Of a DNA stretch of 35,868 bases, positions 1 through 35,868 are shown piece by piece. Origin of the DNA: a virus. Lineage: Duplodnaviria; Heunggongvirae; Uroviricota; Caudoviricetes. The stretch lies in the IMG/VR virus record IMGVR_UViG_2609460346_000008, one strand, 5' to 3'. The notes under the pieces were generated by a model, which did not search any database, had not been told where the DNA came from, and worked only from the letters and a program-made list of their open reading frames with translations. The position numbers and the translations under genes were made by a program. Within the stretch, counting starts at the first letter, position 1; every line of letters starts with the position of its first letter.

Positions 1-162
1 ATGACTACTCAAAACAATAAGCATGATAGCCTGGATTACTCAGAAAAGCCCAAAAGCAAGCACATCGTGACGTTCGAGCGCGATTCCGGTAGAAAAGGAG
101 AATCGTCTTCCTCTGCCAATAAAACCACTATGCCGGCAGCCCCTGCCCCAGGGAAAAAATAA
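1..162 (+). CDS. Small ORF (53 codons) of unknown function; possibly the 3' end of a longer gene starting upstream of the window
   Basis: Open frame from base 1 to TAA at 160-162, not in the supplied track (below its size cutoff). Ser/Ala/Pro-rich tail. Convergent with the 166-798 gene. No RBS can be assessed because the window starts at the ATG. Confidence 0.2.
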   Translation: MTTQNNKHDSLDYSEKPKSKHIVTFERDSGRKGESSSSANKTTMPAAPAPGKK

Positions 163-165
163 ACA

Positions 166-798
166 TCATTCATCGTTCGTTGCACGAACGCGCCTGATCT
201 CCACTCTGGCAATCTGATCTGCTGGAATATAGGTTGCCAGAGCTCCCCAGTACTTATCAACCACGCCTTTATACTCTTCCCATTCGTTACTGCCTGAAGG
301 GCTGCTGTGCGTGACGTAAAGAACCATATCGCCTTTATTCCCCAGGGTAAACGGACCGTTAGGCCACTCTTCAAAGTTCCCTGGCAGCCGTGACATCATA
401 CCGGAACCATCGCGAAGAATCACTCTGACCTCGGTAACGCTGAAGCCTGTTTGATCAAACATTGCCTGCCATGCTGAGCTGGTATCGTCAGACCATGAAA
501 CATCATTATTCCACAGTAATCTGTACATCCATTTGCGACCGTACCTGCGCCACCACGCACCACATGTAACGGCACACAGAAGTGCTGGTGGTGTTGCCAG
601 CCAGGCATTCAGACCTGCCCACATAACAGCCTGGTAAGCCATCATTGCTGTCAGGCCAAAAATCAGCGAAGAAAAAGTCACCTCAATGGGCTTGTGGTGA
701 TCCTTCAGTCCCACATTCGCAATAAAATACCCAATATAGCCACTGGTCAGGGTCACCAGTGTTGCCCATGGCAGATTTAACAACGAAACGTCAAACAT
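166..798 (-). CDS. Hypothetical membrane protein (about 3 N-terminal TM helices plus about 120-aa soluble C-terminal domain); accessory/moron candidate
   Basis: Track ORF 166..876; preferred start is the ATG at 798 (MFDVSLL...) with GGGAGA 4 nt upstream. Hydrophobic segments LVTLTSGYIGYFIANVGL and LIFGLTAMMAYQAVMWAGL...LLCAVTCGAWW. Lies downstream of the early-operon terminator. No family recognised. Confidence 0.6.
   Translation of the reverse strand: MFDVSLLNLPWATLVTLTSGYIGYFIANVGLKDHHKPIEVTFSSLIFGLTAMMAYQAVMWAGLNAWLATPPALLCAVTCGAWWRRYGRKWMYRLLWNNDVSWSDDTSSAWQAMFDQTGFSVTEVRVILRDGSGMMSRLPGNFEEWPNGPFTLGNKGDMVLYVTHSSPSGSNEWEEYKGVVDKYWGALATYIPADQIARVEIRRVRATNDE
174..190. terminator. Short hairpin (7-bp stem CGTTCGT/ACGAACG, 3-nt loop) between convergent ORFs
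   Basis: Inverted repeat read directly from sequence; no clear U-tract on either side, so terminator function is uncertain. Confidence 0.3.
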
Positions 799-912: not shown

Positions 913-1311
913 TTATCTGGATTTGTTAACGTCTTTCGTCTCCTCTGGCAGATCTTCATCAAACAACCTGCCCTGCATCCGATCCAGTTCTTCTTTTCTG
1001 ACCCGCTTAACCACGCTGTAGACCCACTGAAGCGAAACACCAAACTTGCGGGCCAGTTCGTGGTGGTTGCGTCCGTTAAACTCCCTGAAGATTTCCCGGT
1101 CGCGCTGACTGACCTTCCATACCATGCCCATCGGGAAATAAACGTTTTGCCCGCCCCAGACCTGCATCATTCGGTTCGCGACGGCCTGACCAATCTGGTC
1201 GGCAATTGCGGGCTCAATATCAATAATCTCGCGAACGGTCTCAGAGGTATGCTGTGCCAGCTCCACCAGGAGTTCCGGCCCTTTACTTCGAAACTGATTC
1301 AGGTCGCTCAT
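913..1311 (-). CDS. mor: Mor/C-family transcriptional activator (middle/late gene activator)
   Basis: 132 aa, C-terminal HTH-like segment ELARKFGVSLQWVYSVVKRVRKEE; last gene of the early operon directly after a GemA-like gene, as in Mu (gemA-mor). RBS GGGAG 7 nt upstream of the ATG at 1311. Confidence 0.75.
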   Translation of the reverse strand: MSDLNQFRSKGPELLVELAQHTSETVREIIDIEPAIADQIGQAVANRMMQVWGGQNVYFPMGMVWKVSQRDREIFREFNGRNHHELARKFGVSLQWVYSVVKRVRKEELDRMQGRLFDEDLPEETKDVNKSR

Positions 1312-1732
1312 GTTTTACTCCCGCAGCTCTGTGCTGCCACTTCTTCAGTTTCTCAATAACACTGCTTGCCTGTTCAGTATTGAGCCAGCGCAGGGCGCTG
1401 ATGCCCGTTTCCCGCTTGATCCACCGCGCTAATGCATTTTCTGAACGGTCACGAACAATGCCGGCAGCAGCCATTTCAAGCCATAGCGCACGAATTTTCC
1501 TGGACTGCGGATGGTTATCCAGCGGTAAACCGGAGCTGGCTTTTCTGGCTGGTTTAACGCGAAAGCCTTTCTTTTTCATGGATTCCAGCACGCAGTTTAG
1601 TTGTGTGGTATCCATTCCTTTGGTTGAGGCTTTACCGGTCAGCCCCTGTAACATCTGGCGGTAGGTGTCTTCATCCATACCCAGTTCATTACGGGCAATA
1701 TGGATAAGCTGTATCAGGCGTTTTTTCTGCAT
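1283..1732 (-). CDS. gemA: GemA-like protein (Mu gp16 family, DUF1018-like)
   Basis: 149 aa, N-terminus MQKKRLIQLIHIARNELGMDEDTYRQML typical of the GemA family; AAGGAG RBS 5 nt upstream; 3' end overlaps the mor start by 29 nt. Confidence 0.7.
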   Translation of the reverse strand: MQKKRLIQLIHIARNELGMDEDTYRQMLQGLTGKASTKGMDTTQLNCVLESMKKKGFRVKPARKASSGLPLDNHPQSRKIRALWLEMAAAGIVRDRSENALARWIKRETGISALRWLNTEQASSVIEKLKKWQHRAAGVKHERPESVSK

Positions 1733-2840: not shown

Positions 2841-3052
2841 TGTTCTGTATCTCCGGTATTTTTCTGCCGTTTCCATGCCCGGACAGCGTCGGACAGCTCT
2901 TTCAGGCTGTATGCTGCTTTAAGCTTTTCCCATAACCACTGTGTTGTTATGTGCATCAGCAGGGCAGCCAGGGCTGCCCCCGCACTGAGGCATGTCGCCA
3001 GGCCAGTAAGAATCAGTGTCCATGCGGTGATTTCCCTGAGTATGTCAGCCAT
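2837..3052 (-). CDS. Small membrane protein (71 aa)
   Basis: GGGAGG RBS 8 nt upstream of the ATG at 3052; one hydrophobic helix (WTLILTGLATCLSAGAALAALLM). Confidence 0.5.
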   Translation of the reverse strand: MADILREITAWTLILTGLATCLSAGAALAALLMHITTQWLWEKLKAAYSLKELSDAVRAWKRQKNTGDTEQ

Positions 3053-3066
3053 TGAATGCCTCCCGG

Positions 3067-3363
3067 TTACTCGTTCGTGTAAATCACGCCCAGTCGTGCA
3101 GCCAGACGTTCCAGTTTTTTCTGTTTGTGGAAGTCAATCAGCCGGTCCATCCCCTGAAGGCGCAGTTGCTCTGTCATGATTTCCACGTCTGCCAGCTCTG
3201 CCGCGAGGTCACTTTCGCTGCCCTGTCCGTTCAGATTGCGGGCAGCACTGGCCGCCAGTTCAGCGGCCTCTTCTGTCAGTTTCAGGGCCTGTGCGTCCGG
3301 CCCGAAACGCTGCAGGGCCAGACGGTAGAGGGCGGTGCGGGTGAGTTCGGTGTTTCGTGTCAT
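3067..3363 (-). CDS. MazG-like nucleotide pyrophosphohydrolase domain protein (98 aa)
   Basis: Paired acidic helices LTEEAAELAASAA and LAAELADVEIMTEQL match the EExxE...ExxD pattern of all-alpha NTP-PPase (MazG/HisE-like) proteins; RBS GAGGG 7 nt upstream. Confidence 0.5.
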   Translation of the reverse strand: MTRNTELTRTALYRLALQRFGPDAQALKLTEEAAELAASAARNLNGQGSESDLAAELADVEIMTEQLRLQGMDRLIDFHKQKKLERLAARLGVIYTNE

Positions 3364-3932: not shown

Positions 3933-4463
3933 TTACTGCACATTCTGCTCAAAAGGAATTATTGAAAAATCCTCAATATCACTTTTTATGGTAATACCGG
4001 GAATATTTTTCACGGCGTCCTTTTCATTCAGGATGGCGTCTTTATTTATTTCCTCCTTTACACGGATAAAGCGCTCAAGCCCCAGACGTCTCAGTAATTC
4101 AATAACATTATCCGCCCCACGGATACTGACTGACGGCGGACGGTTTCGCCACTGCACCTCGCCGGTGGTGAGGTTAGCGAACTTCACCTTCCCGTTGCCG
4201 GTCAGTTCATCACGGTGTGCCTCACACCATGTCTGAATACCGGACTGCAGTTCGGCCATGCGTTTTTTCAGGCTCTCGGTGAGCGGGGCATAACGTGCGG
4301 TGATGTCGCCAATGGTGTCATTCATTTCTGTTTCAGCCCTGACCAGTTCACGTTGCGCGTCACCAAGCAGTCTGATTCCCTCAATGACCTCTTCGCGTGT
4401 CCCCGGCACCCAGAGTGCTGCTGCGGCTTTGATACGTTTTGCCCCTTTTGTACTTTTTGCCAT
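3933..4463 (-). CDS. gam: Gam-like host-nuclease inhibitor (Mu Gam / Ku-like DNA-end-binding protein)
   Basis: 176 aa (Mu Gam is about 174 aa); position downstream of the transposition genes as in Mu; strong AGGAGGAG RBS. Confidence 0.75.
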   Translation of the reverse strand: MAKSTKGAKRIKAAAALWVPGTREEVIEGIRLLGDAQRELVRAETEMNDTIGDITARYAPLTESLKKRMAELQSGIQTWCEAHRDELTGNGKVKFANLTTGEVQWRNRPPSVSIRGADNVIELLRRLGLERFIRVKEEINKDAILNEKDAVKNIPGITIKSDIEDFSIIPFEQNVQ

Positions 4464-4762: not shown

Positions 4763-5929
4763 TTAAACCCCTTTGACAACGTCAGCGTTGACCTGTGGAA
4801 CCCCGATTTCAGCGGCCAGATTCATGGCGGCTATTACCAGGTTACTGACGGCCAGCGGATACAGCAGGCTGACCATATTTTTACGATGACTTCCCGGATT
4901 GCTCAGGCGGGCACGTATGGCATCCACTGCGCTGGCGTCCATAATGTCCGTCAGTTGTTTACCGGCCCGTTGCAGTTTGAACGTCAGAAACTCTTCAAGG
5001 TTATTGTCCAGAGGCAGAAGTTCGACCACCTCACAGCGCTGAACGACTTCACGGACTTCCATATTGCGTTCAGACAGTTTTGTCGCCAGTTCCGGCTGGC
5101 CAATCAGCACGATGGACAGCAGTTTTTTGAAACCGGACTCCAGCTCAAAAAAGCGTTTGAGGTGTTTCAGTGTCGGAATGGGCAGACTGTGGGCCTCCTC
5201 AATCACCAGAACGTGGCTGAACCCCGCCTGGCTGCTGTCTTTCAGGACGCGATGCAACTGGCGAAAGCGGGCGTCCTGACTGCGTCTGATGCTTTCCAGT
5301 GGTGCGATGGTACTGATAATGGCTTCGGCAATCGCTGCTGCCTTCAGGGTTTTCCCTTTCACATCGTTGTCTTCCATAGCGATGATGTATGGCTCGATAA
5401 CAATTACCGGCGCATTCTCGCGGTTGATACGTTCAGTCAGGTCGCGGCGCAGCGTGGATTTACCCGCACCGGACTCACCGATGACGGCCATAAACCCACC
5501 ATGACGGGCTGTCTGGTACAACGCCTCACGCACGTAGCGAATGTCCGGGGTGGTGAACACATCATCAGAACCCTGCATGGCTTCATCGGCGAACGGGTCA
5601 CGGAAAAGACCAAACGCTTTTTTGGTTGCTGGAAATAACACCTGTTTTTTGAGTAACATATTCTCTTCCTCACTGAGGCTCGTTTTATCTGTGGTACCCG
5701 CTGTACGGGGCGTGGCTGCGCCCTGTACAGCATCAAAACTCTTCGTTGTATCAATCCCCTGACTTTCCAGCCAGGACGCAAGACGCCGGCGCACTTCTCC
5801 GGGGCTGGTGCGGGGCCACGCGTTATGATTCACAATCTGGGCCAGCGTGGCCTCAGAAACATCGACAGCTCTCGCCACCACCGCCTGTGGGATACGGGCC
5901 TCTTTCAGTTGCTGCTTCAGTACCAGCAT
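4763..5929 (-). CDS. Transposition ATPase (AAA+; functional analogue of MuB, ExeA/TniB-like)
   Basis: Walker A GESGAGKST and Walker B VLVIEEAH; N-terminal HTH-like region; preferred start is the ATG at 5929 with GAGGAGG RBS 5 nt upstream (track ORF extends to 5968); immediately downstream of the DDE transposase. Confidence 0.8.
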   Translation of the reverse strand: MLVLKQQLKEARIPQAVVARAVDVSEATLAQIVNHNAWPRTSPGEVRRRLASWLESQGIDTTKSFDAVQGAATPRTAGTTDKTSLSEEENMLLKKQVLFPATKKAFGLFRDPFADEAMQGSDDVFTTPDIRYVREALYQTARHGGFMAVIGESGAGKSTLRRDLTERINRENAPVIVIEPYIIAMEDNDVKGKTLKAAAIAEAIISTIAPLESIRRSQDARFRQLHRVLKDSSQAGFSHVLVIEEAHSLPIPTLKHLKRFFELESGFKKLLSIVLIGQPELATKLSERNMEVREVVQRCEVVELLPLDNNLEEFLTFKLQRAGKQLTDIMDASAVDAIRARLSNPGSHRKNMVSLLYPLAVSNLVIAAMNLAAEIGVPQVNADVVKGV

Positions 5930-5939
5930 GTTTTCCTCC

Positions 5940-7709
5940 TCAGTTGCCGTTAACAATGCTGATAACACTGCTGCGTGCCGGCGTGGTCAGCGTGGCCATG
6001 ACTTCATCCAGTGCAGCTTCCGGTACGCCGTCCGGGTACTGTGCCGTTAACTGGCGGTAATGTTCCGGCGTCCAGGTAAGGCCGTCGGCGCTGAACTTAT
6101 CGCGCAGGGCTTTCGCGGCCTCCACATGAGTCATGGGACGCTGTTCAGTGCGCGGTCCGCGTACGTCAGAGGCCTGGCCTCGCTTCGGCAGGTAGGCCGG
6201 AAGTGTGGTGTCGTCGATATGTTTATACGGGTCAAGCCGCCCGCCGAACGGCAGCGCCTTCGCCTTGCGTGCGGCAGCTGCATCTGCGGCGTTGTCTGTA
6301 CCGGTGACCAGCGCTTCGGTTTCTTTTGCCGCCATCTGCGCCGGGGTTTCCGGCAGGGCTTTGTAACTTTCGCCAAATACCGCCGCGCCTTCAGCAAAGC
6401 CAAACTCGTTCTTTCTGACCTCTTCGACCAGGAAGAACGTCTCGTGGCCGTCCTCACCGGTCAGAACCACCTGTGCCACATCGCTGCGCCACGGGTTACG
6501 GGTAATCATCAGTTTTTCACCAACCAGTACGCCCGGTACCGTTGATACGTCAAATTCAGTGCCCCGGAACGAGACACGAAGTTTTGGCGTGACTTTGCGG
6601 AGTTCTGGTGCCGCCACAGCCAGTTCACGACATACCTCAACGGAAGGCGCTTTTTTCAGCTGCTCAGCAGTAATCTTCAGCCAGATATCCGTGCGGGTTT
6701 TACCGTGGCGGCTGTGAACAGCCGTGGCGTTAAAGTGGCTGCGCCATTTCGCGGCCAGCGCGTTGAGTTCTTCCAGACTGTGAACCGGCCGGAACTTCAG
6801 ACCCGGCTCCAGCTTGCGTTCGATAATGTCCCGCGCCTTTTCCACCTGTCCGGTGGCGCGGGCGTTATGCGGCTTGTGCGCTATCAGGTCGATGCCCAGT
6901 GAGCGGCACATGTTTTTCGTCATACCCGCGGTGTTTGCCGAGCCGGGGTCGAGATAGAGTATTTTCGGCACACCGTGCAGCACGTCTGCGCCGCCACGCT
7001 CCTGCATGGCGTTGATAAGCACAGAACACAGGTTCTCACCTGATTCCGCGCCCGTCACATACTCAACGTAAATCCAGCCGCTGGCATGGTCGGTAATCTC
7101 GTAACTCCACACGCGGTCACTGGCGATACGGGCAAGGTTAGCGGGCTTGTTCTTGTAGAACTTCGCGCTGTCCATCACCTGCAGCCCTTTATGTCCATTG
7201 CTCAGGTAGTAAAGCGTGCAGAGTGAGGCGTCAATCTGCCAGACATGATTGGGATGCAGACTGGCCACTTCGGTATGCGGCGCAGGGGCATCCAGTTGTT
7301 CCGGGTGCAGGCCATAGTTACGCAGGGCTCGGCTGATGGCATCTTCGGACAACGGGAAAAACTCACCGGTGGTTTCATCTGTTCTGCCTGCGGATATAAA
7401 GCCGTTAGCCCGCAGGGTTTCCACTGCATCCGCGATGGAATAGAGACGCTTACCGTTCTTGCGGGTGGCCTCACGCAGTGTGGCAGATATCAGCGCGGCT
7501 TCGTCGCGGGTCAGGGCGCTGCGCCCGGCATCGGCGCGTTTTTTGCGTTTATCAGTCACAGATACCTCCTTCAGCCTGCGCAGCAGAGTGGCGCGGGACA
7601 TGCCAAGTTCAGCACAGGCAGCGTCGTATATTGCACCGCGTTTACCATGCCCCGCGTCACGTGCCGCGCGGGCTGTTTCAACCAGTTTTTCAGTCAGTGC
7701 CGGGGTCAT
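5940..7709 (-). CDS. DDE transposase (integrase-core/rve fold, Mu/Tn552/TnsB-like) with N-terminal HTH
   Basis: 589 aa; catalytic triad spacing read from the translation: D in HVWQIDAS, D in YLDPGS, E in ATGQVE 36 residues after the second D (D,D-35-E). Confidence 0.85.
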   Translation of the reverse strand: MTPALTEKLVETARAARDAGHGKRGAIYDAACAELGMSRATLLRRLKEVSVTDKRKKRADAGRSALTRDEAALISATLREATRKNGKRLYSIADAVETLRANGFISAGRTDETTGEFFPLSEDAISRALRNYGLHPEQLDAPAPHTEVASLHPNHVWQIDASLCTLYYLSNGHKGLQVMDSAKFYKNKPANLARIASDRVWSYEITDHASGWIYVEYVTGAESGENLCSVLINAMQERGGADVLHGVPKILYLDPGSANTAGMTKNMCRSLGIDLIAHKPHNARATGQVEKARDIIERKLEPGLKFRPVHSLEELNALAAKWRSHFNATAVHSRHGKTRTDIWLKITAEQLKKAPSVEVCRELAVAAPELRKVTPKLRVSFRGTEFDVSTVPGVLVGEKLMITRNPWRSDVAQVVLTGEDGHETFFLVEEVRKNEFGFAEGAAVFGESYKALPETPAQMAAKETEALVTGTDNAADAAAARKAKALPFGGRLDPYKHIDDTTLPAYLPKRGQASDVRGPRTEQRPMTHVEAAKALRDKFSADGLTWTPEHYRQLTAQYPDGVPEAALDEVMATLTTPARSSVISIVNGN

Positions 7710-7724
7710 AGCTTGTCTTCCCTG

Positions 7725-8042
7725 TTATCCGATTCTGGCGGCAATTTTTCTGGCGAGGTCGCACAGTGTTTCGCCATCGCAGGTTTTCACCACGGTATTT
7801 ACCGGTTGCGGTGCAACTACCGGGCGTAATGCTGACTGATTCTGCAGACGTCTTATCTGCTGCATCAGCATCACCTCCATCGTCAGTACAAACGGGTGCG
7901 TCTCCTGTGCGGGTACGCAGATTTCACCGGAAGGGGTCACCACGCGGAAACCCTGCACCATCTCCGGCAGCAGATTACACAGTGCGTGCCCCAGTGCCTC
8001 CGGGCTGTCCATCAGGGTATTTTGTGTGTTATTCGTATTCAT
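7725..8042 (-). CDS. Hypothetical early protein (105 aa)
   Basis: ATG at 8042 overlaps the stop of the upstream gene (TAATG); GGAGG upstream. Confidence 0.5.
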   Translation of the reverse strand: MNTNNTQNTLMDSPEALGHALCNLLPEMVQGFRVVTPSGEICVPAQETHPFVLTMEVMLMQQIRRLQNQSALRPVVAPQPVNTVVKTCDGETLCDLARKIAARIG

Positions 8043-8962
8043 TACTGCATATCCTCCGGTCGGTTGATTTCAGGTTCCGGTTCGGTCAGCCAGGCGGGGG
8101 CATCGTTACCCGATGGAGCGGCCTCAAGGTCAAACGTCTCACGTAATGCATGAACACTGCGTTCAATCTGGCAGACCAGACCGGCCATGAAATCTCTGGG
8201 GGTATCGATCATGTTTTTGGTGCAGTATTCACACAGGGTCTCAAAAACACTGGACAGCTGGACGGCGATAGCCGATTCGGCCTCAACCGCTAATGCCATC
8301 ACTTCCGCCCGCAATTTTTTCAGTTCTTCGTCTGGCGGCGGAGGTTGCAGGCGCGATTTCTTCTCCAGTTTTGTGGCCAGTTCGTTGATTTTTTCGTCCT
8401 TTCCGGCAAGCACCTGTTGCTGAGCTGCGTTGGTTTCGCGCGCTTCACGCAGGGCGGCCTTCAGTTCGCGGCTGGTCATGCGATCAATATCATCAAGCGT
8501 TGCACCGGCGACGGTTCCACCATCAGCTAATGCGTCGAGTTCTTCGTCATCCAGAACCATCAGTTCATATAACTTGGTTTTTCCCAAAACGCTCAGCGCT
8601 GAGCGTTTTGGCTGTTCATCTCCATTGCCGAGAAATTTCACGCTGGCCTGCATCATGCGACGAGCTACCTGTGGTGCTAATCCGAGGTCGTTTTCCAGAA
8701 TATTTGTGAAATCACCATGCGGTTCATTTTCTTTTAAGATGATCAGCCGCTTACCCGCTTCCAACATAGATTCAGCACTCTGCGCCATATAAAAACGTGC
8801 TTCGTGAACGATGCGTTCACGTTCATAAGGCAGTCCATCACCAAACTGCTGCATGATCTCCATGCGATGCTGTGTCATGGCATTCAGGCTGACGTTGAGA
8901 TCATCCGACAGCGGTACATCGGCGTTCAGTTCAGTGTTAATCGGTGATTTGGTACGTCCCAT
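8042..8962 (-). CDS. Hypothetical early protein (306 aa) with acidic/coiled-coil C-terminal half; possibly DUF3102-like
   Basis: AAGGAG RBS 8 nt upstream of the ATG at 8962; the N-terminal region (RFYMAQSAESMLEAGKRLIILKENEPHGDF...) resembles a phage/plasmid domain of unknown function. Family assignment is tentative. Confidence 0.55.
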   Translation of the reverse strand: MGRTKSPINTELNADVPLSDDLNVSLNAMTQHRMEIMQQFGDGLPYERERIVHEARFYMAQSAESMLEAGKRLIILKENEPHGDFTNILENDLGLAPQVARRMMQASVKFLGNGDEQPKRSALSVLGKTKLYELMVLDDEELDALADGGTVAGATLDDIDRMTSRELKAALREARETNAAQQQVLAGKDEKINELATKLEKKSRLQPPPPDEELKKLRAEVMALAVEAESAIAVQLSSVFETLCEYCTKNMIDTPRDFMAGLVCQIERSVHALRETFDLEAAPSGNDAPAWLTEPEPEINRPEDMQ

Positions 8963-8972
8963 TGATTACTCC

Positions 8973-9281
8973 TTACAAACGACTACCTGAAATGACACGT
9001 TGGTTAATTTCGTTAATACGATCCTGTGCACGTGCCATCTCGTTACTGTGGGCCATGGCGATCTGCAGTAACTGGATGCCCGGTGCAAAACGTCCGTTCT
9101 CCAGTTTCAGAGCCAGCCCTTCTTCAATGAGGGTGTTGAGTGCCCGGTTGATGTTTGCCGGTGACTCGTGCAGTGCTGTCGCCAGTTCACCGTTAGAAAT
9201 ACCGTTCAGGGCATGACCGCGCAGCGCTTTGAGTACCCGGAGGATGCGACTGCCGGAGCTTGAAACATTCGTCTTACTCAT
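8973..9281 (-). CDS. Winged-helix DNA-binding protein (IclR/MarR-like HTH)
   Basis: Start at the second ATG at 9281 (MSKTNV...), which has AGAGG at proper spacing; segment ISNGELATALHESPANINRALNTLIEEGLA is HTH-like. Confidence 0.55.
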   Translation of the reverse strand: MSKTNVSSSGSRILRVLKALRGHALNGISNGELATALHESPANINRALNTLIEEGLALKLENGRFAPGIQLLQIAMAHSNEMARAQDRINEINQRVISGSRL

Positions 9282-9333
9282 CTGCATACCTCTTTTGCGA
9301 TATGTGATAACCTTTTACAAAGACTCAAAATAT

Positions 9334-9522
9334 TTAGGCCGCCTGAGCTGTTGATTTCAGTCCCAACTTCACGGCGATTTCATGGGATTTACCGTAACGG
9401 GCTTTGGTCTGCCCGTTGAGAACGCGGTATACCTCATTGCGGTTGTAGCCGTTTTCTTCTGCCCAGCGGGTGAAAGTGATCCCGCGCTGGCGGAAGAGAG
9501 CTTTGACTTGTTCTGCAGTCAT
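9334..9522 (-). CDS. Ner/Cro-like small DNA-binding regulator (first gene of the early operon)
   Basis: 62 aa, HTH-like; AAGGAG RBS 8 nt upstream; divergent from the repressor gene across an operator-containing intergenic region, as for Mu ner versus c. Confidence 0.55.
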   Translation of the reverse strand: MTAEQVKALFRQRGITFTRWAEENGYNRNEVYRVLNGQTKARYGKSHEIAVKLGLKSTAQAA

Positions 9523-9574
9523 CGTTGTCTCCTTTGTTGATGCAATGATGTTTGCCTTATATGTGTTAGATTAT

Positions 9575-10057: not shown

Positions 10058-10090
10058 ACCGGAAAGCATTGTGCTTTCCGGTTTTGTTTC
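10058..10090. terminator. Bidirectional rho-independent terminator between the repressor and methyltransferase genes
   Basis: 10-bp perfect stem ACCGGAAAGC/GCTTTCCGGT, 5-nt loop, T-rich tracts on both sides (ttggttt ... tttgtttc). Confidence 0.7.
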
Positions 10091-10853
10091 AGAAGTTGCA
10101 GATTAGCAGTTCACGGCGCGGCGTGGGTTTACCCGCCAGACTGTAGTTGATATTCACTGTCTGTATGTTCAGTCCAGTGAACACCTCGCGCATCTGCGGG
10201 ATGTCGTTCACCGAAATTATCATTTTTCCTCTGATGCACCGGGCCAGCTCTGCCAGCCGCGAGTAGTTCCCTTCAGGAAAATCCACACCATAGCCTTCCG
10301 TACCCAGGTACGGTGGGTCGCAGTAGAACAGCGTGTGCGGACGATCATAACGCTCAATGCACTGTTGCCAGTCCATGTGTTCTATGACTGTTCTGGAAAG
10401 CCGCAGGTGTGCCGCTGACAGTTCTTCTTCAATACGCAGCAGGTTGAAGCGTGGCGGGGATGTGGTGGAGGTACCGAAGCTGTGCTCTGCCACCTTGCCG
10501 CCAAACGCCTGCTTCTGAAGGTAGTAGAACCGTGCCGCACGCTGGATATCCGTCAGTGTTTCTTCCGGGGTGATCTGCAGCCATTTGTAGATCTGACGGC
10601 TGACCAGCGCCCATTTGAACTGGCGGACAAATTCTTCCAGGTGATGCTTTACCACCCGGTACAGATTCACCAGTTCACCGTTGATATCATTGATGACTTC
10701 GATCTTGCCGGGTGTCTTAAGAAAATAGAGCGCTGCTGCCCCACAAAACGGCTCCACATAACATTCATGCGCCGGAAACAGCGGCAGAATGTGTTTTGCA
10801 AGGCGGCGTTTGCCACCAATCCACGGCACGATGGGTAATGTCTGCATTTTCAT
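10089..10853 (-). CDS. dam: DNA N6-adenine methyltransferase, Dam (D12) class; orphan (no nuclease partner seen)
   Basis: Motif I FCGAAAL and motif IV DPPY (FYCDPPYLG); N-terminus PIVPWIGGKRRLA typical of the Dam family; start placed at the internal ATG at 10853 (MKMQTL...); the track ORF extends to 10943. Confidence 0.85.
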   Translation of the reverse strand: MKMQTLPIVPWIGGKRRLAKHILPLFPAHECYVEPFCGAAALYFLKTPGKIEVINDINGELVNLYRVVKHHLEEFVRQFKWALVSRQIYKWLQITPEETLTDIQRAARFYYLQKQAFGGKVAEHSFGTSTTSPPRFNLLRIEEELSAAHLRLSRTVIEHMDWQQCIERYDRPHTLFYCDPPYLGTEGYGVDFPEGNYSRLAELARCIRGKMIISVNDIPQMREVFTGLNIQTVNINYSLAGKPTPRRELLICNF

Positions 10854-10957
10854 AATCTGTAAGCCTTTTACAATTATTAAAAAATATGGCAGTCTGGTCA
10901 GGTCTCGCGAGACTGACTGAACCTTGGTCGGCTCACAGCGCATTCCTGTGGGGCGAT

Positions 10958-11043: not shown

Positions 11044-11259
11044 TTATCCGGGGCGATTTTCTGACCTTATCCGGTCCAGGGCATAAGTAATACCTTCTGC
11101 AAAAACAGAAGTATCAAACTGCTTTTGTATTCCCTGAAAATGAAAAGCGGCACGACAGACACTCAGTTCTCCGCGATGTAACCGGATAATATCTTCCAGA
11201 ACATTGTTCACTGCTTCAGCACGGCGCTGATGTTCTGTTAACGTTAATCGGGGATTCAT
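11044..11259 (-). CDS. Hypothetical protein (71 aa)
   Basis: AAGGAG RBS 7 nt upstream of the ATG at 11259, but the start codon overlaps the start of the opposite-strand ORF; one of the two may be spurious. Confidence 0.35.
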   Translation of the reverse strand: MNPRLTLTEHQRRAEAVNNVLEDIIRLHRGELSVCRAAFHFQGIQKQFDTSVFAEGITYALDRIRSENRPG

Positions 11260-11260
11260 G

Positions 11261-11662
11261 ATGCACTCCTTAAATGATGATTTTTATGCACTCACCGGCA
11301 AAATATTCTGCCGATTACTGAACACGCATCCGGCACCTCAGGTTTTGATTTATTCTGGTTTTTTCGATATTCCGGACCAGGTTGATCACGACCAGAAAAA
11401 GTGCCGGTATTTTATTGATACGCTGATATGGCTTCGGGATAACAGCTATATTCGTTACTCTCAGTTGCTGGCTGTGGGAGCGGCTGATGTCGTCCTCACG
11501 GAAAAAACGCTCCGTCTGCTCAATGCCACGCCGACCCTTCTGCAGCCCCGGCCCGCACCATTTAAAGAGTCACTTCTGGATGCAGTAAAAACCGGTGAAA
11601 ATGCAGTCATCGCTGAACGCGTATCCCGGATTATGAGTTACGTGTTTAATGAACGTAAGTGA
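11261..11662 (+). CDS. Hypothetical protein (133 aa), convergent with the P-loop gene
   Basis: Open frame with coding-like codon usage; GGGGA 6 nt upstream of the ATG at 11261; 3' end overlaps the P-loop gene's 3' end by 25 bp. No family recognised. Confidence 0.4.
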   Translation: MHSLNDDFYALTGKIFCRLLNTHPAPQVLIYSGFFDIPDQVDHDQKKCRYFIDTLIWLRDNSYIRYSQLLAVGAADVVLTEKTLRLLNATPTLLQPRPAPFKESLLDAVKTGENAVIAERVSRIMSYVFNERK

Positions 11663-12366
11663 GGTTTATCCGCTGTCTGCATAATCCCGATAGCCAGTGC
11701 GAGGGGAAGTAATTCCGGGGAAGTTCTTTCAAACAGCGATTCCCATTCTCCTCTCGCCATCACTCTGTCCAGCCCGCCCTCCAGTTGCATTTCAGCAATC
11801 TTCCTGATTTCCCGGAACAACGCCGCTTTGATCTCTTCATGCTCAGCTTTATTTTCCGGTGTCAGAAGGTATTCGTCGAAGAACCGGGGAGGCTGGTTAA
11901 TCGGGATGTGTTCCTGTTTGCCGTACTTCGGAGACGAACAACATTCTGTTGGCTGACCGGTGAGTTTACGTAACTCCTTCATGAGCAGCTCCTGATCGTA
12001 AACTGTCATCAGTGCCGCAATGGTGGCATGCAGTGCATCGGGCAGTATCCAGGGTTGCCGGCCCGTGGGGCATATAACATCCAGCAGCTCATTCCTCCGA
12101 CAGATACGCTCCTCGCCGTATGACAACAGGCCCTGTCCCGTGTATTCCTCCAGCCTGATCACTGTGCCAGCCCGTGGTTTCTGCCATGTGCTCAGATCAT
12201 CCCCACTCATACGGCGCTCACCGTCCACGTCTGCGGCGTCGACAATGACGCTGTTTCCGAATTCCTGTTTCACCACTTCCTCTATCCGCGCCAATATGTA
12301 ACTTTTACCGCTGCCCACAGGACCGGACACGGTGACAGTGATGACCGGATTCAGTGTCTGCGTCAT
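11638..12366 (-). CDS. P-loop NTPase-like protein (242 aa) with uncharacterised C-terminal domain
   Basis: Walker A GPVGSGKS near the N-terminus (residues about 15-22); strong RBS GAGGAGA 7-8 nt upstream of the ATG at 12366; divergent from the lysis cassette; C-terminal about 160 aa unrecognised. Confidence 0.65.
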   Translation of the reverse strand: MTQTLNPVITVTVSGPVGSGKSYILARIEEVVKQEFGNSVIVDAADVDGERRMSGDDLSTWQKPRAGTVIRLEEYTGQGLLSYGEERICRRNELLDVICPTGRQPWILPDALHATIAALMTVYDQELLMKELRKLTGQPTECCSSPKYGKQEHIPINQPPRFFDEYLLTPENKAEHEEIKAALFREIRKIAEMQLEGGLDRVMARGEWESLFERTSPELLPLALAIGIMQTADKPHLRSLNT

Positions 12367-26306: not shown

Positions 26307-29300
26307 ATGTCGGGACAGTTTTCAGTCGGCGTTGTTATCGGCGGGATGATTGGCAGCACATTCCGTTCTGCAATGAGCGGTACCCGCCGTGCGCTTGATT
26401 CCCTGAGCGATACCTCACGCCGCCTGCAGGAACGTCAGAACGCTTTAACCCGTGCAACAGAACGTTATGGTCAACTGGGTTCTTCCCGGATGCAGCATCT
26501 CAACAGCGAGCTGCTGCGGGTAAGCCGCACCATGGAGCAAATTGAGCGCCAGCAGCGCCGTCTGTCAGCGGCATCCGCTACCAGTGATGCGCTGAAAGCT
26601 AACCGCATGGCGCTGTATGGTCAGGGGATTGAAGCGTATGGCATGGCACAGACTGTTTATCATACGGTTTCCCCTGCCGTTCAGCAGTCCATGTCTTTTC
26701 AGGACAAAATGATTGATATGTCGATCACCGCAAAATATGACAATAAAACGCGGGATGCACTTGCCGGACAGATAAAAGGCTGGGCGCTTAAATACAATCA
26801 GTATCAGGATGAGCTGCAGGAGGCGGTGGGTTCACTCATCAGCGACAATATTGATAATGTGTCAGATATCGGTTTTCTGATGCCGGATATTGCCCGCGCG
26901 GCAACGGCAACACGCACGTCTGCTCAGGACTGGGCAAAAGTGGCCGCAGTCTGGCAAAACTCCCTGAAAGGTGCGGCCAGAGATTTTGGTGCCGTTCAGA
27001 ATATTATGGCTTATGCCGGTGACCAGGGGTCATTTGAAATCCCGGATCAGGTCAAGTGGATGCAGTCCCTGGCCCCAATGATGGCGGGTATTGCCAGTGG
27101 AAAAGAGGCTGTTGCTGAAATCGGGGCCAGTCTCCAGATAGCAAAAATCGGTGCAGGTTCCACCGACGAAGCAGCCAATAATTTTAAAAACTTTCTTACC
27201 AAAATTTTTGCCCGCGATACTCAGAAACAGTTTGCTGATCTGGGTATTGATTTGCAGGGATCTATTGCGAGTTATAAGGCTGCGGGGATCTCTCCGATTG
27301 AAGGGATGTTGAGTGTTATAGAACGTTACCTCAATGCCAAAAGCCCCGAAGCGCTGGCCGGCTTCAAATCCGCCATGAAAATAAAGAATGATACGGCAAG
27401 AGATGAGGCACTTCAGGCTCTGGCGAAAAACTTTGGTCTGGGTGATATGTTCGCGGATATGCAGGTCATGGCATTTATCCGCCCGATGCTGGCCAACATG
27501 GACAGATATCGAGAGATCCGTGCCGGTGCTCTCAGGGCTGCGGATAACGATTTGCTTGCCAGTGCTTACGATCAGCGACTGAAATCTCCCCTTGAAGCCA
27601 CTAAAACACTTATGGTCAGCAGTCGCGATCTGGCAATTACGCTGGGCGATCAATTAGCTCCATCTTTTATTTCTTTGACTCAGGAACTGCTTCCACTCAT
27701 TCAGGGGGCAAAACACTGGGTAGCGACTCACCCGCAATTTGTCAGTGGGGCTTTTAAGCTCATCAGTGCGCTCCTTGCGATTAAGATAGCGACTGTTGGT
27801 CTCAAACTGGGGCTGAATCTCCTTATTTCCCCCTTTGTAAGTGTCTGGAAAAATGCTGTTTTACTCCGGACCAACTGGCATCGACTGACTACCGCACTCG
27901 GAGAAGGTGGCAAATTACGCTGGCTTGTCACTGGATTCAGCCGACTGACCAGCGGAGGACTGAAACTCAGCAAAGTTCTGGCGGGCAGCCTCGTTCGCGG
28001 TTTTATGAGCGCTGCACGTGCCGTTCTCTGGATTGGGCGAGCGCTGATGATGAATCCCATCGGTCTCGTTATCACCGCTGTCGCGGCAGCAGCTTACCTT
28101 ATCTACCGCAACTGGGGGGCTGTCAGTGGTTGGTTTAAACAGCGCTGGGCTGACATTCAGGAAGCCTTTAACGGCGGCATTGTGGGAACTGGTAAGTTGC
28201 TGATTAACTGGTCGCCGGCAGGCCTGCTCTATAAAGCCTTTGCGGCTGCGCTGAAATATTTCGGCGTTGCTCTGCCGGCAAAGTTCACCGACTTCGGTGG
28301 CCATCTTATCGACGGTCTGATTAACGGTATCAAAAGCAAATGGGGGTCGCTCAAATCCAGTGTAACCGGAATGGGTGACAGCATCAGTAGCTGGTTTAAA
28401 CAGCGCTGGGCTGACATTCAGGAAGCCTTTAACGGCGGCATTGTGGGAACTGGTAAGTTGCTGATTAACTGGTCGCCGGCAGGCCTGCTCTATAAAGCCT
28501 TTGCGGCTGCGCTGAAATATTTCGGCGTTACTCTGCCGGCAAAGTTCACCGACTTCGGTGGCCATCTTATCGACGGTCTGATTAACGGTATCAAAAACAA
28601 ATGGGGGTCGCTCAAATCCAGTGTAACCGGAATGGGTGACAGCATCAGTAGCTGGTTTAAACAGTGCTGGGCTGACATTCAGGAAGCCTTTAACGGCGGT
28701 ATCGCGGGAACTGGTAAGCTGCTGATTAACTGGTCGCCGGCAGGTCTGCTCTATAAAGCCTTTGCAGCTGCGCTGAAATATCTTGGTGTTGATCTGCCGG
28801 CAAAGTTTACCGACTTCGGTGGCCATCTTGTCGATGGTCTGATTAACGGTATCAAAAACAAATGGGAGTCGCTCAAATCCAGTGTAACCGGAATGGGCGA
28901 CAGCATCAGTGGCTGGTTCAGCGAAAAGCTGGGCATTCATTCGCCGAGCCGCGTGTTTATGGGCTTTGGTGACAATATCGCGCAGGGGGCCGCCATTGGC
29001 CTGCAGCGGACCACTCCGCTTGCAGCTCTGGCCGGGCAGCGAATGGCCAGTGAACTGCTCCCCAGAATGCCCGTGAGCATTCAGGGGCCAGAAATACGGG
29101 ATAACACTTCAGGTGTTCGCTTCAGTATGCCGTTGCCCGATATCAATGGGTTTATGTCGTCTGCTAAAAATGCGATCGGAGCCGTAATCAATAGTTTGTC
29201 TTCCATGCCCGCTATCCCGCTCTCCACCCGGGCATCGATTTTACCAGGGCAACGTCTGGCAAATGAGATGACACCGGATGTTCCCCGTATCCCCTCGCCT

Positions 29301-29519
29301 GAAATCATGGCTGCCGGATATTCAGGCCGTGGTGCAGCTGCAACCGGCGGTGGAACGTCTGGTGGTATCCAGGTCAGCTTTAATCCTCAGTTTTTCCTCA
29401 ATGGCAGGGAAACCACAGCGCCTGCAGGACTGACTGGTGCCCTGAATATGAGTCTGCATGAGCTGGAAAAAATGCTGGAGCGTCTGCTGGCTCAGAAACA
29501 ACGTAAGGAGTACCGCTGA
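26307..29519 (+). CDS. Tail tape measure protein (1070 aa) with internal tandem repeats
   Basis: Longest ORF in the tail module; GGAGG RBS 9 nt upstream; Ala/Gly-rich helical regions plus hydrophobic segments; three 87-aa tandem repeats. Confidence 0.9.
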   Translation: MSGQFSVGVVIGGMIGSTFRSAMSGTRRALDSLSDTSRRLQERQNALTRATERYGQLGSSRMQHLNSELLRVSRTMEQIERQQRRLSAASATSDALKANRMALYGQGIEAYGMAQTVYHTVSPAVQQSMSFQDKMIDMSITAKYDNKTRDALAGQIKGWALKYNQYQDELQEAVGSLISDNIDNVSDIGFLMPDIARAATATRTSAQDWAKVAAVWQNSLKGAARDFGAVQNIMAYAGDQGSFEIPDQVKWMQSLAPMMAGIASGKEAVAEIGASLQIAKIGAGSTDEAANNFKNFLTKIFARDTQKQFADLGIDLQGSIASYKAAGISPIEGMLSVIERYLNAKSPEALAGFKSAMKIKNDTARDEALQALAKNFGLGDMFADMQVMAFIRPMLANMDRYREIRAGALRAADNDLLASAYDQRLKSPLEATKTLMVSSRDLAITLGDQLAPSFISLTQELLPLIQGAKHWVATHPQFVSGAFKLISALLAIKIATVGLKLGLNLLISPFVSVWKNAVLLRTNWHRLTTALGEGGKLRWLVTGFSRLTSGGLKLSKVLAGSLVRGFMSAARAVLWIGRALMMNPIGLVITAVAAAAYLIYRNWGAVSGWFKQRWADIQEAFNGGIVGTGKLLINWSPAGLLYKAFAAALKYFGVALPAKFTDFGGHLIDGLINGIKSKWGSLKSSVTGMGDSISSWFKQRWADIQEAFNGGIVGTGKLLINWSPAGLLYKAFAAALKYFGVTLPAKFTDFGGHLIDGLINGIKNKWGSLKSSVTGMGDSISSWFKQCWADIQEAFNGGIAGTGKLLINWSPAGLLYKAFAAALKYLGVDLPAKFTDFGGHLVDGLINGIKNKWESLKSSVTGMGDSISGWFSEKLGIHSPSRVFMGFGDNIAQGAAIGLQRTTPLAALAGQRMASELLPRMPVSIQGPEIRDNTSGVRFSMPLPDINGFMSSAKNAIGAVINSLSSMPAIPLSTRASILPGQRLANEMTPDVPRIPSPEIMAAGYSGRGAAATGGGTSGGIQVSFNPQFFLNGRETTAPAGLTGALNMSLHELEKMLERLLAQKQRKEYR
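28131..28913 (+). repeat. Three in-frame tandem repeats of 261 bp (87 aa) inside the tape measure gene
   Basis: Unit starts at 28131, 28392 and 28653 (tggtttaaacagcgctgggctgacattcaggaagcc...); copies 1 and 2 nearly identical, copy 3 slightly diverged. Confidence 0.9.
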
Positions 29520-34419: not shown

Positions 34420-35868
34420 ATGGGAAACCTGAATGAAACAGAAAAGTGGGAAGAAAATATCTATCAACTGGAGACATCAGATCCGGTTCTGGGTGGTGCT
34501 GACGGGATATCAAATCGAGCCCCCCGGCAACTGGCAAACAGGACGAAATGGCTGAAGAAAAAAACGGAGGAAGCCGCACAGTCACTGGCTGAACACGTAC
34601 GTTCCCGTAACCACCCGGACGCGACACTGACAGCTAAGGGGTTCACCCAACTGAGCAGTGCCACCAACAGCACCTCTGAAACGCTGGCCGCCACACCAAA
34701 AGCGGTCAAGGCTGCATACGACCTGGCAGCCGGCAAGGCGCCTGCCAGCCACACTCACCCGTGGAGTCAGATAACGGGAGTGCCTGCGGCTTCACTGACG
34801 GCAAAAGGCACCGTACAACTGAGCAGCGCCACGGACAGTCAATCAGAAACTGAGGCTGCCACGCCGAAGGCTGTGAAAATCGCGTATGATCTGGCCCGGG
34901 GAAAATACACAGCCCAGGATGCAACAACGACCCGTAAAGGGATCGTACAACTGAGCAGTGCCATCAACAACACGTCTGAAACGCTGGCCGCCACACCGAA
35001 AGCGGTCAAGGCTGCATACGACCTGGCAGCCGGCAAGGCGCCTGCCAGCCACACTCACCCGTGGAGTCAGATAACGGGAGTGCCTGCGGCTTCACTGACG
35101 GCAAAAGGCACCGTACAACTGAGCAGCGCCACGGACAGTCAATCAGAAACTGAGGCTGCCACGCCGAAGGCGGTCAAGGCTGCATACGACCTTGCAGCCG
35201 GCAAGGCGCCCGTCAGCCACACTCACCCGTGGAGTCAGATAACGGGAGTGCCTGCTGCCTCGCTGACGGCAAAAGGCACCGTACAATTGAGCAGTGCCAT
35301 CAACAGCACGTCTGAAATACTGGCCGCCACACCGAAAGCGGTCAAGGCTGCATACGACCTTGCAGCCGGCAAGGCGCCCGTCAGCCACACTCACCCGTGG
35401 AGTCAGATAACGGGAGTGCCTGCTGCCTCGCTGACGGCAAAAGGCACCGTACAATTGAGCAGTGCCATCAACAGCACGTCTGAAGTGCTGGCCGCTACAC
35501 CGAAAGCTGTCAAGGCTGCATACGATCTGGCAAACGGAAAACAACCGGCAGATGCCACGCTCACTGCTCTGGCAGGACTTTCCACTGCAGCAGATCGGTT
35601 GCCTTATTTTACCGGAGCAGACCGAGCAGCGCTGGCAACCCTTACAGCTATTGGTCGCGCTATTATCGCTAAGGGCAGTATAAAAGATGTCCTCAATTAC
35701 CTTGGTTTGGGGGAAGGCTCTGCATTGCCTGTTGGTGTACCGGTTCCGTGGCCCACCGCCACACCGCCAGAAGGCTGGTTAAAGTGCGACGGGCGCGCCT
35801 TTACAAAAGAACAATATCCTGTTCTGGCCAGAGCCTACCCGACCCTCCGTCTTCCCGATTTACGCGGT
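34420..35868 (+). CDS. Tail fibre protein, 3'-truncated by the window end
   Basis: Open frame from the ATG at 34420 (GGGAG 9 nt upstream) to the last base of the window with no stop, which is why it is absent from the track; about 56-aa tail-fibre repeats (TAKGTVQLSSA...ATPKAVKAAYDLA...SHTHPWSQITGVPAASL); C-terminal visible part PVPWP...GWLKCDGRAF...YP.L...YP resembles conserved fibre segments. Confidence 0.8.
   Translation, partial: MGNLNETEKWEENIYQLETSDPVLGGADGISNRAPRQLANRTKWLKKKTEEAAQSLAEHVRSRNHPDATLTAKGFTQLSSATNSTSETLAATPKAVKAAYDLAAGKAPASHTHPWSQITGVPAASLTAKGTVQLSSATDSQSETEAATPKAVKIAYDLARGKYTAQDATTTRKGIVQLSSAINNTSETLAATPKAVKAAYDLAAGKAPASHTHPWSQITGVPAASLTAKGTVQLSSATDSQSETEAATPKAVKAAYDLAAGKAPVSHTHPWSQITGVPAASLTAKGTVQLSSAINSTSEILAATPKAVKAAYDLAAGKAPVSHTHPWSQITGVPAASLTAKGTVQLSSAINSTSEVLAATPKAVKAAYDLANGKQPADATLTALAGLSTAADRLPYFTGADRAALATLTAIGRAIIAKGSIKDVLNYLGLGEGSALPVGVPVPWPTATPPEGWLKCDGRAFTKEQYPVLARAYPTLRLPDLRG
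34620..35530 (+). repeat. Tandem repeat array (about 168-bp units) inside the tail fibre gene, including a near-identical 190-bp duplication 300 bp apart
   Basis: 34681-34871 and 34981-35171 are nearly identical (one mismatch noted); 168-bp periodicity at 35221 versus 35389; accounts for the shadow ORFs on the minus strand here. Confidence 0.85.

Follow-up and report, generated by a model that had tools for sequence, protein, structure and literature searches.

The closest described counterparts of the locus presented here are transposition modules that follow a common logic, i.e., a DDE enzyme paired with a target-selecting AAA+ partner, as in the TnsB-TnsC pair of Tn7 and CAST elements and the IstA-IstB pair of IS21. 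Tn552, a 6.5-kb resistance transposon of Staphylococcus aureus that also carries a resolvase, has the transposase gene p480 followed by a small AAA+ gene, p271. At each Tn552 end, the transposase has two 23-bp binding sites in direct repeat, and the target duplications of the element are 6-7 bp in length. Phage Mu uses replicative transposition as its mode of phage DNA replication, with an A then B gene order and TG...CA ends. The gp09/gp08 pair of phage BcepMu (genus Bcepmuvirus) was reportedly described by Summer et al. in 2004. The BcepMu transposase is a member of the Tn552-IS1604 family that is unrelated to MuA, and BcepMu is said to be without an invertible tail-fibre segment with a Gin-like recombinase (PMC2771037). 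In phage B3, the target duplication is 6 bp (PMC8705779).

The window, i.e., the whole 35,868-nt stretch of tailed-phage DNA that was analysed, very probably carries the pair, TnpA and TnpB, with which a transposable Escherichia coli prophage of the BcepMu/B3 type, related to Bcepmuvirus, transposes and replicates. What the initial annotation proposed had already been published for BcepMu-like viruses (PMC2771037). A BcepMu-type pair distinct from MuA/MuB has been known from publications since 2004, and that reading is correct but ordinary: transposable phages that combine a Tn552-related transposase with an AAA+ partner form a well-described group, of which the window is a routine representative with little that is new. 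This transposition module occurs in 638 of the 5,426 complete genomes of E. coli that were counted (~12%), with up to three copies in each.

The genomic context matches that of BcepMu in gene order and strand. Thirty-four of the 50 BcepMu proteins have collinear counterparts in the window in the same orientation, the early genes lying on the minus strand and the late genes (lysis, head, and tail) on the plus strand. The early gene directly upstream of tnpA (8042-8962, minus strand) is conserved and belongs to Pfam DUF3102; its product is a homologue of BcepMu gp10 (38% identity) and of B3 ORF13, which is annotated DUF3102 and occupies the same position. Downstream in the leftward early operon lies gam (3933-4463, minus strand; Pfam Phage_Mu_Gam, 8e-41), which encodes a Mu Gam-like host-nuclease inhibitor, and the operon ends with gemA (1283-1732, minus strand; Pfam GemA, 1e-40) and a mor/C-type late activator gene (913-1311, minus strand; Pfam Mor, 1e-43). 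Mu has the same gam, gemA, and mor neighbours, but the early genes of the window run opposite to the late ones, unlike those of Mu. Among phage records, PhiKM comes closest (98% DNA identity) and is classified as Bcepmuvirus, while a close relative, VG38-53E1, has Mu gp29/F/G-like head genes and P2 FI/FII/X/D/V/W/J/I-like tail genes in its PGAP annotation. These features bear out the earlier description of the element as a BcepMu-type mosaic with a Mu-like head module, a P2-like baseplate, leftward early genes, and rightward late genes. The differences from BcepMu lie in the host (Burkholderia for BcepMu, E. coli here), in the accessory genes (a Dam methylase and left-end ORFs in the window, an acyltransferase in BcepMu), and in the invertible tail-fibre segment and Gin-like recombinase of the E. 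coli relatives. B3 shares only the early and transposition module, with the order DUF3102 gene, tnpA, ATPase gene; it is a siphovirus, and its late region differs.

The transposase gene, tnpA (5940-7709, minus strand), opens with ATG in the ORF list of the window and encodes 589 aa, which agrees with the initial annotation, as does the comparison with the longer MuA (663 aa). TnpA and the ATPase encoded next to it each have thousands of full-length homologues, and both ORFs are therefore real genes and not chance ORFs. TnpA matches PHROG family phrog_310 ("transposase", 4e-147) and a single Pfam family, rve, with 35.8 bits against a cut-off of 32.6 bits; the Pfam content of the BcepMu pair is the same (rve only and AAA_22 only). 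It is 68% identical to BcepMu gp09 across 581 aa and 56% identical to B3 TnpA (ORF12) across 595 aa, in both cases over the full length of the protein.

The D,D-35-E character assigned to TnpA earlier is retained. The predicted catalytic triad comprises D160 (codon 7230-7232, minus strand; HVWQIDASL), D254 (6948-6950, minus strand; KILYLDPGSAN), and E290 (6840-6842, minus strand; TGQVEKA), with 35 residues between the latter two. All three residues are invariant among 117 TnpA relatives with 31-54% identity and in a 60-sequence subset. Searched against the PDB, the profile built from these 117 sequences matches retroviral integrase cores (7e-11) and Tn7 TnsB (1e-6), with no match to MuA; in these alignments, D160 falls opposite the region of the first catalytic Asp in HTLV-2 integrase, and E290 opposite the G-VE of retroviral integrases. 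The first PDB searches, which used single sequences or shallow profiles of TnpA and the ATPase, returned only P-loop or marginal integrase matches. On the basis of these alignments, TnpA is classed as an rve-type DDE transposase of the BcepMu/B3 family with an intact triad, and by homology it would catalyze end cleavage and strand transfer.

Structural models agree with this assignment to a limited extent. AF2 models built from 30-sequence alignments (64-94% identity) have mean pLDDT values of 62.9 and 64.4, with values below 50 in the TnpA DDE core (residues 152-366) and in the ATPase P-loop region (residues 110-170). Foldseek against the PDB ranks ShCAST TnsB, IstA, and Tn7 TnsB first for the low-confidence TnpA model, and generic AAA+ proteins, Cdc6/ORC, type I-B CAST TnsC, and Tn7 TnsC for that of the ATPase; these rankings count as weak support because the cores are modeled with low confidence. 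Sequence identity to the Tn7, CAST, and IS21 proteins is only ~13-15%, and TM-scores are only ~0.2-0.35 with models that are unreliable in their cores. The TnsA, TniQ, and CRISPR components of Tn7 and CAST are absent here.

The ATPase gene, tnpB (4763-5929, minus strand), encodes a 388-aa transposition ATPase composed of an N-terminal helix-turn-helix (HTH) domain, a variable linker, and an AAA_22 core with a lid. The longest ORF at this position (4763-5968, minus strand; ORF list of the window) begins with GTG and has the 401 codons given in the initial annotation, but the N-terminal trim amounts to 13 codons and not 12, leaving a coding sequence of 388 aa. The GTG start was rejected, all 30 aligned homologues beginning at the ATG methionine (ML[VQ]LK...). 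Translation almost certainly begins with the ATG at 5929, which is preceded at a distance of 4 nt by a GGAGGA Shine-Dalgarno sequence, and the gene is 1167 nt in both the PGAP annotation and the PhiKM record. This ribosome-binding site overlaps the TGA stop codon of tnpA (5942-5940; overlap region 5930-5942, minus strand). The gap between the two genes is 10 nt, which suggests that their translation may be coupled.

The ATPase scores 73 bits against AAA_22 and matches phrog_296 ("DNA transposition protein", 7e-94). Full-length identities to BcepMu gp08 and B3 ORF11 are 59% and 55%, respectively, and the linker is ~16 aa shorter than that of gp08. Walker A (GESGAGKS, residues 151-158; 5456-5479, minus strand) and Walker B (VLVIEE, residues 240-245; 5195-5212, minus strand) are both intact: G151, E152, S153, G154, G156, and K157 of the former and I243, E244, and E245 of the latter are invariant in 30 homologues, and Walker B aligns with VIIDE of MuB. 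The putative HTH domain (residues 1-56; 5762-5929, minus strand), delineated from AF2, BFVD, and hhalign comparisons, consists of four predicted helices (residues 3-10, 15-21, 26-35, and 43-56; pLDDT 82-87) that superpose with 2-3 Å rmsd on many XRE/Cro-type HTH proteins in Foldseek searches of BFVD; the same searches with the low-confidence models returned no significant whole-protein match. Pfam HTH matches are weak (HTH_3, E=0.11 for the window ATPase; HTH_24, E=0.0017 for BcepMu gp08), and PF01381 is precomputed for Serratia homologues. Together these results argue with moderate strength for the N-terminal HTH that had been proposed in the initial annotation. Tn552 p271 is without this HTH and linker.

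The terminal repeats and target-site duplication that the initial annotation suggested looking for were found in close relatives (loci L004 and L009-L014) and were read there and not in the window. Four independent insertions in E. coli lie in yegU, in a PTS gene, in gspL, and between fadM and ybaV; their ends, of the TG...CA type, are identical (TGATCAG...GCATCA), and they are flanked by the 6-bp duplications TTTACC, GCTGGC, GAGTGT, and CCACGA. The ends were located by reading the junctions and confirmed by the empty site and three further insertions; the empty yegU site occurs in 5,422 genomes. Generic inverted-repeat detection reported no prophage ends because these are short and imperfect. 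Both ends contain a GATAAAT core at nucleotides 14-20 and 37-43, i.e., 23 bp apart, and the BcepMu ends have the same architecture, with TGA at the outer end, GATAWWT at nucleotides 14 and 37, and a terminal CA. The GATAAAT units are putative TnpA binding sites by analogy with homologous systems. The duplication length of 6 bp found here is the one reported for B3 and differs from the 5 bp of Mu. The combination of TGATCAG...GCATCA ends, GATAAAT units with 23-bp spacing, and a 6-bp duplication provides a simple way to delimit such prophages, which prophage finders often truncate.

The window is truncated likewise and contains neither prophage end, which makes its integrity impossible to judge from the window alone; moreover, the tape-measure gene is annotated as broken in VG38-53E1. 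The copy could thus be a decayed, immobile remnant with a non-functional module, but this is improbable: both ORFs are full length with their invariant catalytic and Walker residues in place, synteny with BcepMu is kept across the whole 35.9 kb, the nearly identical PhiKM DNA was deposited as a phage record, and relatives occupy many chromosomal sites with intact ends and duplications.

The database name of the ATPase, "ExeA family protein" (PGAP), raises a second alternative, according to which the protein is a true ExeA/GspA-type accessory factor in type II secretion and stands outside transposition. Its gene would then serve lysogenic conversion or "pathogenesis", the role initially suggested for BcepMu gp08. 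The BcepMu record carries the note "exe/eha type II secretion pathway subunit", and the KS10 paper repeats both the ExeA assignment and a toxin-secretion suggestion (PMC2628397). The ATPase does match TIGR03015, the ExeA-like ATPase model, but with 68 bits it falls far under the cut-off of 324.5 bits. Compared with E. coli GspA, which served as a stand-in for ExeA, it shares a 20-32 residue P-loop match and nothing beyond, and Pfam detects no peptidoglycan-binding or other periplasmic domain; the likeness is confined to the AAA_22-type P-loop core from which the name derives. The context is that of a transposition operon, the gene following tnpA after 10 nt with its ribosome-binding site overlapping the tnpA stop codon. 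The pairing of transposase and ATPase is kept in BcepMu, B3, and Tn552, the layout of an N-terminal HTH and an AAA+ core is that of MuB, and RefSeq now calls both gp08 and ORF11 "DNA transposition protein". A secretion role is therefore highly improbable, and the ATPase is better read as the partner of TnpA. The names "ExeA family protein" and "integrase catalytic domain-containing protein" mask a phage replication-transposition pair, and the former has led to unsupported virulence-factor suggestions.

The TniB half of the earlier "ExeA/TniB-like" label fares no better. Pfam TniB (PF05621) is unmatched by the ATPase at E<=1, and R751 TniB gives an hhalign probability of 3% and an HMM E-value of 0.15, while the match of the ATPase HMM to Tn552 p271 is marginal (E 4e-4). 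The AAA_22 core implied by the label is present, but the contrast drawn with MuB was overstated, because MuB matches AAA_22 equally (78 bits) and has an N-terminal HTH as well. On sequence grounds, the ATPase is not a secretion-type ExeA and is not demonstrably TniB-like.

MuB further contains Phage-MuB_C (116 bits), which Pfam does not find in the window ATPase, and BLASTP reveals no similarity between the two proteins. Their hhalign comparison is weak (probability 24%, E 8e-4), with the HTH, Walker A, and Walker B collinear. The succession of an N-terminal HTH and an AAA_22 core is common to both proteins and is not specific to the MuB family. By analogy, the ATPase corresponds to MuB in function and is distantly related to it, with a weak sequence link.

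For the transposase the separation from Mu is sharper. MuA contains the Pfam domains DDE_2, HTH_Tnp_Mu_1, HTH_Tnp_Mu_2, and Mu-transpos_C, none of which is found in the window TnpA even at E<=1 or in any of 60 diverse family members at E<=0.01. BLASTP of TnpA against MuA gives nothing significant, and hhalign assigns a probability of 0.2% even with the 117-sequence profile. In a six-sequence database, the TnpA family HMM matches the C-terminal fragment of Tn552 p480 with an E-value of 3.9e-8 and leaves MuA unmatched; BLASTP against the same fragment gives E 0.002 for TnpA and 5.7e-5 for BcepMu gp09, with 25% identity over 187-209 aa, a region that takes in the latter half of the DDE core and the barrel behind it. 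Two p480 fragments were used because the source copy, from pMW2, is frameshifted; the best 12 of 440 plasmid matches are 100% identical to pMW2 p480 and have no annotated transposase CDS at that location. The Tn552 transposase is absent from pUSA300HOUMR. As judged from these comparisons, TnpA has a detectable relationship to the Tn552 transposase and TnsB and none to MuA.

That the pair represents highly diverged MuA and MuB of the same families as Mu is scarcely credible: function, A-then-B order, TG...CA ends, Gam/GemA/Mor neighbours, and the HTH and AAA_22 layout of MuB are indeed common to Mu, and the enzymes all fall within the RNase-H-fold DDE and AAA+ superfamilies, but the sequence comparisons to MuA and MuB are negative, the MuA domains and Phage-MuB_C are missing, the target duplication measures 6 bp against the 5 bp of Mu, and the TnpA family lies nearer to p480 and TnsB. 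Profile searches thus place neither protein in the MuA or MuB family, in line with the initial annotation, which had set the pair apart from a classical MuA/MuB module, and the gene order is BcepMu-like rather than Mu-like.

As a BcepMu/B3-type module, the pair may operate as follows, with biochemical roles taken from homologous systems. TnpA, an RNase-H-fold, rve-type DDE enzyme, would rely on D160, D254, and E290 for catalysis and bind the two GATAAAT-core sites, 23 bp apart, at each prophage end. It would then pair the ends, nick at the terminal 3′ CA, and join the 3′-OH groups to target phosphates staggered by 6 bp. TnpB, with its N-terminal HTH, would be an ATP-dependent DNA-binding AAA+ protein that captures target DNA and hands it to the transposase, much like MuB, Tn7 TnsC, Tn552 p271, and IS21 IstB. 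This target-delivery role is proposed mainly from gene position and from analogy with MuB, TnsC, and IstB. Replication across the strand-transfer intermediate would yield replicative transposition in the lytic cycle, while its repair would yield a simple insertion on infection.

The only possibly new point to emerge from the analysis is a candidate second start, in frame and conserved, within the ATPase gene. Met91 (candidate start codon 5657-5659, minus strand) is invariant in the 30 ATPase homologues, and conservation resumes there after the variable linker. It is preceded by a Shine-Dalgarno-like motif in all three phages compared, namely GAGGA in the window (5671-5667), AGGAGG in BcepMu, and GAGGAG in B3. 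The gene might conceivably encode two in-frame proteins, one of 388 aa with the HTH and one of ~298 aa, initiated at Met91, without it, although this reading is tentative and rather unlikely. If it holds, a short HTH-less isoform could act on filament formation, on the choice of target, or on immunity, a layer of control that, to our knowledge, is undescribed for MuB-type proteins. The peptide that begins at Met91, MLLKKQVL, is also nearly the same as the N-terminus of the ATPase, MLVLKQQL.

The transposition module of the window comprises two minus-strand ORFs, tnpA (5940-7709(-), 589 aa, ATG start), which encodes the transposase, and tnpB (listed as 4763-5968(-), 401 aa, GTG start), which encodes the ATPase; ORF listing and translation agree exactly with the coordinates initially annotated for both. 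The GTG start is rejected because GGAGGA precedes an ATG at 5929 and overlaps the tnpA stop codon (TGA, 5942-5940), this first Met is the start in 30/30 aligned homologues, and the gene is 1167 nt long in both the PGAP and the PhiKM (the closest phage record) annotations. On these grounds the ATPase has 388 residues, and its N-terminal trim is 13 codons, not the 12 originally counted. The DDE enzyme and its P-loop partner are both intact and share one operon, and the 10-nt gap between stop and start suggests translational coupling.

The transposase is 68% identical to gp09 of BcepMu, the record note of which reads "Tn552/IS1604 rve transposase", and 56% identical to TnpA of phage B3. Its sole Pfam match is rve (35.8 bits, cut-off 32.6); MuA matches DDE_2, HTH_Tnp_Mu_1, HTH_Tnp_Mu_2, and Mu-transpos_C. 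Among 1.84 billion cluster representatives searched, 1,239 proteins (E<=1e-3), mostly ~590 aa long, make up a compact family. D160, D254, and E290 are invariant across an alignment of 117 of these proteins (31-54% identity), with 35 residues between D254 and E290. Among 60 diverse family members, 47 match rve and none carries a MuA-specific Pfam domain. Searched against the PDB, the family profile finds retroviral integrase cores (7e-11), Tn7 TnsB (1e-6), and, marginally, IstA, with MuA absent among the 60 matches listed; hhalign of the transposase with MuA is null (probability 0.2%). In a small panel, the family HMM matches the Tn552 p480 C-terminal fragment (E 4e-8), does not match MuA whatsoever, and reaches no significance with R751 TniA. 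Foldseek with the AF2 model, which is unreliable in the catalytic core, ranks ShCAST TnsB, IstA, and Tn7 TnsB above retroviral integrases, an order consistent with the sequence result but no independent proof of it.

The ATPase shares 59% identity with BcepMu gp08 and 55% with B3 ORF11, both currently named "DNA transposition protein". It consists of a four-helix HTH (residues 1-56; AF2 pLDDT >80, XRE/Cro-like matches at 2-3 Å), a variable linker (residues ~60-90), and an AAA_22 core (73 bits in Pfam) followed by a helical lid; Walker A (GESGAGKS, residues 151-158) and Walker B (VLVIEE, residues 240-245) are invariant. The HTH plus AAA_22 layout is common to MuB (AAA_22, 78 bits), but the Phage-MuB_C domain of MuB is absent. 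BLASTP returns no match to MuB, and the hhalign alignment is fully collinear but weak (E 8e-4, probability 24%). These profile searches bear out the reading that the pair is not MuA/MuB. Pfam TniB is unmatched, and R751 TniB aligns still more weakly than MuB. The ExeA model TIGR03015 scores 68 bits against a cut-off of 324.5, Pfam finds no peptidoglycan-binding domain, and only the P-loop is in common with E. coli GspA. Judged by sequence, the "ExeA" name stems solely from the generic core.

An internal in-frame ATG encodes Met91 of the ATPase (window 5659; 5657-5671(-) including an upstream SD-like GAGGA). All 30 homologues keep Met91, at which conservation resumes beyond the variable linker, and the equivalent Met follows SD-like motifs in BcepMu (AGGAGG) and B3 (GAGGAG). 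The peptide from Met91, MLLKKQVL, echoes the N-terminus, MLVLKQQL. A nested isoform of ~298 aa lacking the HTH may be produced from this codon, a possibly new point.

The module is 98.8% identical to that of Escherichia phage PhiKM, classified as Bcepmuvirus, and 89% identical to that of Klebsiella phage KP12. It occurs in 638/5,426 complete E. coli genomes, which carry 1-3 copies. By tblastn, 34 of the 50 BcepMu proteins match the window in collinear order and in the same orientation. The minus strand carries mor, gemA, ATPase, transposase, gp10, gp12, and gp16, and the plus strand carries holin, endolysin, terminase, portal, head, sheath, tube, tape measure, and baseplate. In the near-identical prophage of E. 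coli VG38-53E1, PGAP annotates head genes of the Mu gp29/F/G type and tail genes of the P2 X/D/V/W/J/I type. The proposed BcepMu-type mosaic, with early genes leftward and late genes rightward, is supported. The VG38-53E1 prophage is otherwise 99% identical, with mosaic patches at window 2974-3077, 7697-8169, and 8169-9574; two short mosaic stretches have no alignment to it, and ORF 7725-8042, which immediately precedes tnpA, falls in this unaligned sequence. The gp10/gp12/gp16 homologues and repressor region are only 85% identical, which suggests that early-control and immunity alleles are exchanged among relatives.

The window is a truncated prophage that holds neither end: the first 196 bp at the left are missing, and it stops within the tail-fibre gene, ~2.6 kb before the right end. 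The element ends and the target duplication are seen in four close relatives at four different loci (yegU, a PTS gene, gspL, and the fadM-ybaV interval), which share identical ends, 5'-TGATCAGACATGAGATAAAT...ATTTATCGCGCGGCGCATCA-3', flanked by 6-bp direct repeats (TTTACC, GCTGGC, GAGTGT, CCACGA). A 7-bp duplication is excluded at two of the four sites, and 5,422 genomes have an empty yegU site with a single TTTACC. The element integrates with a 6-bp stagger at many sites; the literature gives 6 bp for B3/Tn552-family transposases and 5 bp for Mu (PMC8705779). GATAAAT occupies nt 14-20 and 37-43 of each end (two 23-bp units), accounting for 4/7 occurrences in the whole 38.8-kb element, and BcepMu has GATAWWT at identical positions in both ends. 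The TG...CA ends are defined, with paired candidate binding sites. By analogy with Mu, Tn7, Tn552, and IS21, TnpA would assemble on these sites, nick at the 3' CA, and carry out strand transfer, while ATP-bound TnpB would coat or capture target DNA and activate TnpA; replication of the intermediate would amplify the genome during lytic growth.

The initial interpretation is right but already known, because the literature states its key points: the transposase of BcepMu is a member of the Tn552-IS1604 family with no relationship to MuA (PMC2771037), and TnpA plus a TnpB ATPase is the signature of transposable phages (PMC8705779). Phages with Tn552-related transposases are the subject of a dedicated paper, as cited elsewhere (Toussaint and Van Gijsegem 2018, in PMC5977238, PMC6776037, and PMC8705779).

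The right part missing from the window carries, in relatives, inverted 220-bp repeats (39719-39947, 41101-41329, and 41597-41814 of L004, a locus with a related prophage at 3758-42528), together with alternative C-termini for the tail fibre and a recombinase resembling Gin (L004 41878-42450). It is an invertible host-range segment, reported absent from BcepMu (PMC2771037).

A D12-class N6-adenine DNA methyltransferase (10089-10943(-), Pfam 1e-28) is flanked by the immunity region and the lysis cassette and has no BcepMu counterpart by tblastn. Between it and the holin sit ORFs 11638-12366(-) (242 aa; faint P-loop match only, AAA_30 E 0.0075) and 11258-11662(+) (134 aa), with no family or BcepMu counterpart. 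The left-end segment (1-876; G+C 47.6% versus about 55-60% elsewhere) contains ORFs 1-162(+) and 166-798(-), which have no Pfam family or BcepMu counterpart and could be cargo ("moron") genes beside the prophage end. The tape-measure gene (26307-29519(+), 1070 aa) includes a 261-bp unit repeated three times in tandem (28123-28918(+), 95% matches). The VG38-53E1 annotation splits this gene into two broken pieces, and a sequencing gap interrupts it in PhiKM, both probably through assembly problems or copy-number variation at the repeat. In the tail-fibre gene a 168-bp unit is repeated ~3.6 times in tandem (34936-35532(+), 89% matches), and the copy number differs in a related prophage according to BLAST offsets.
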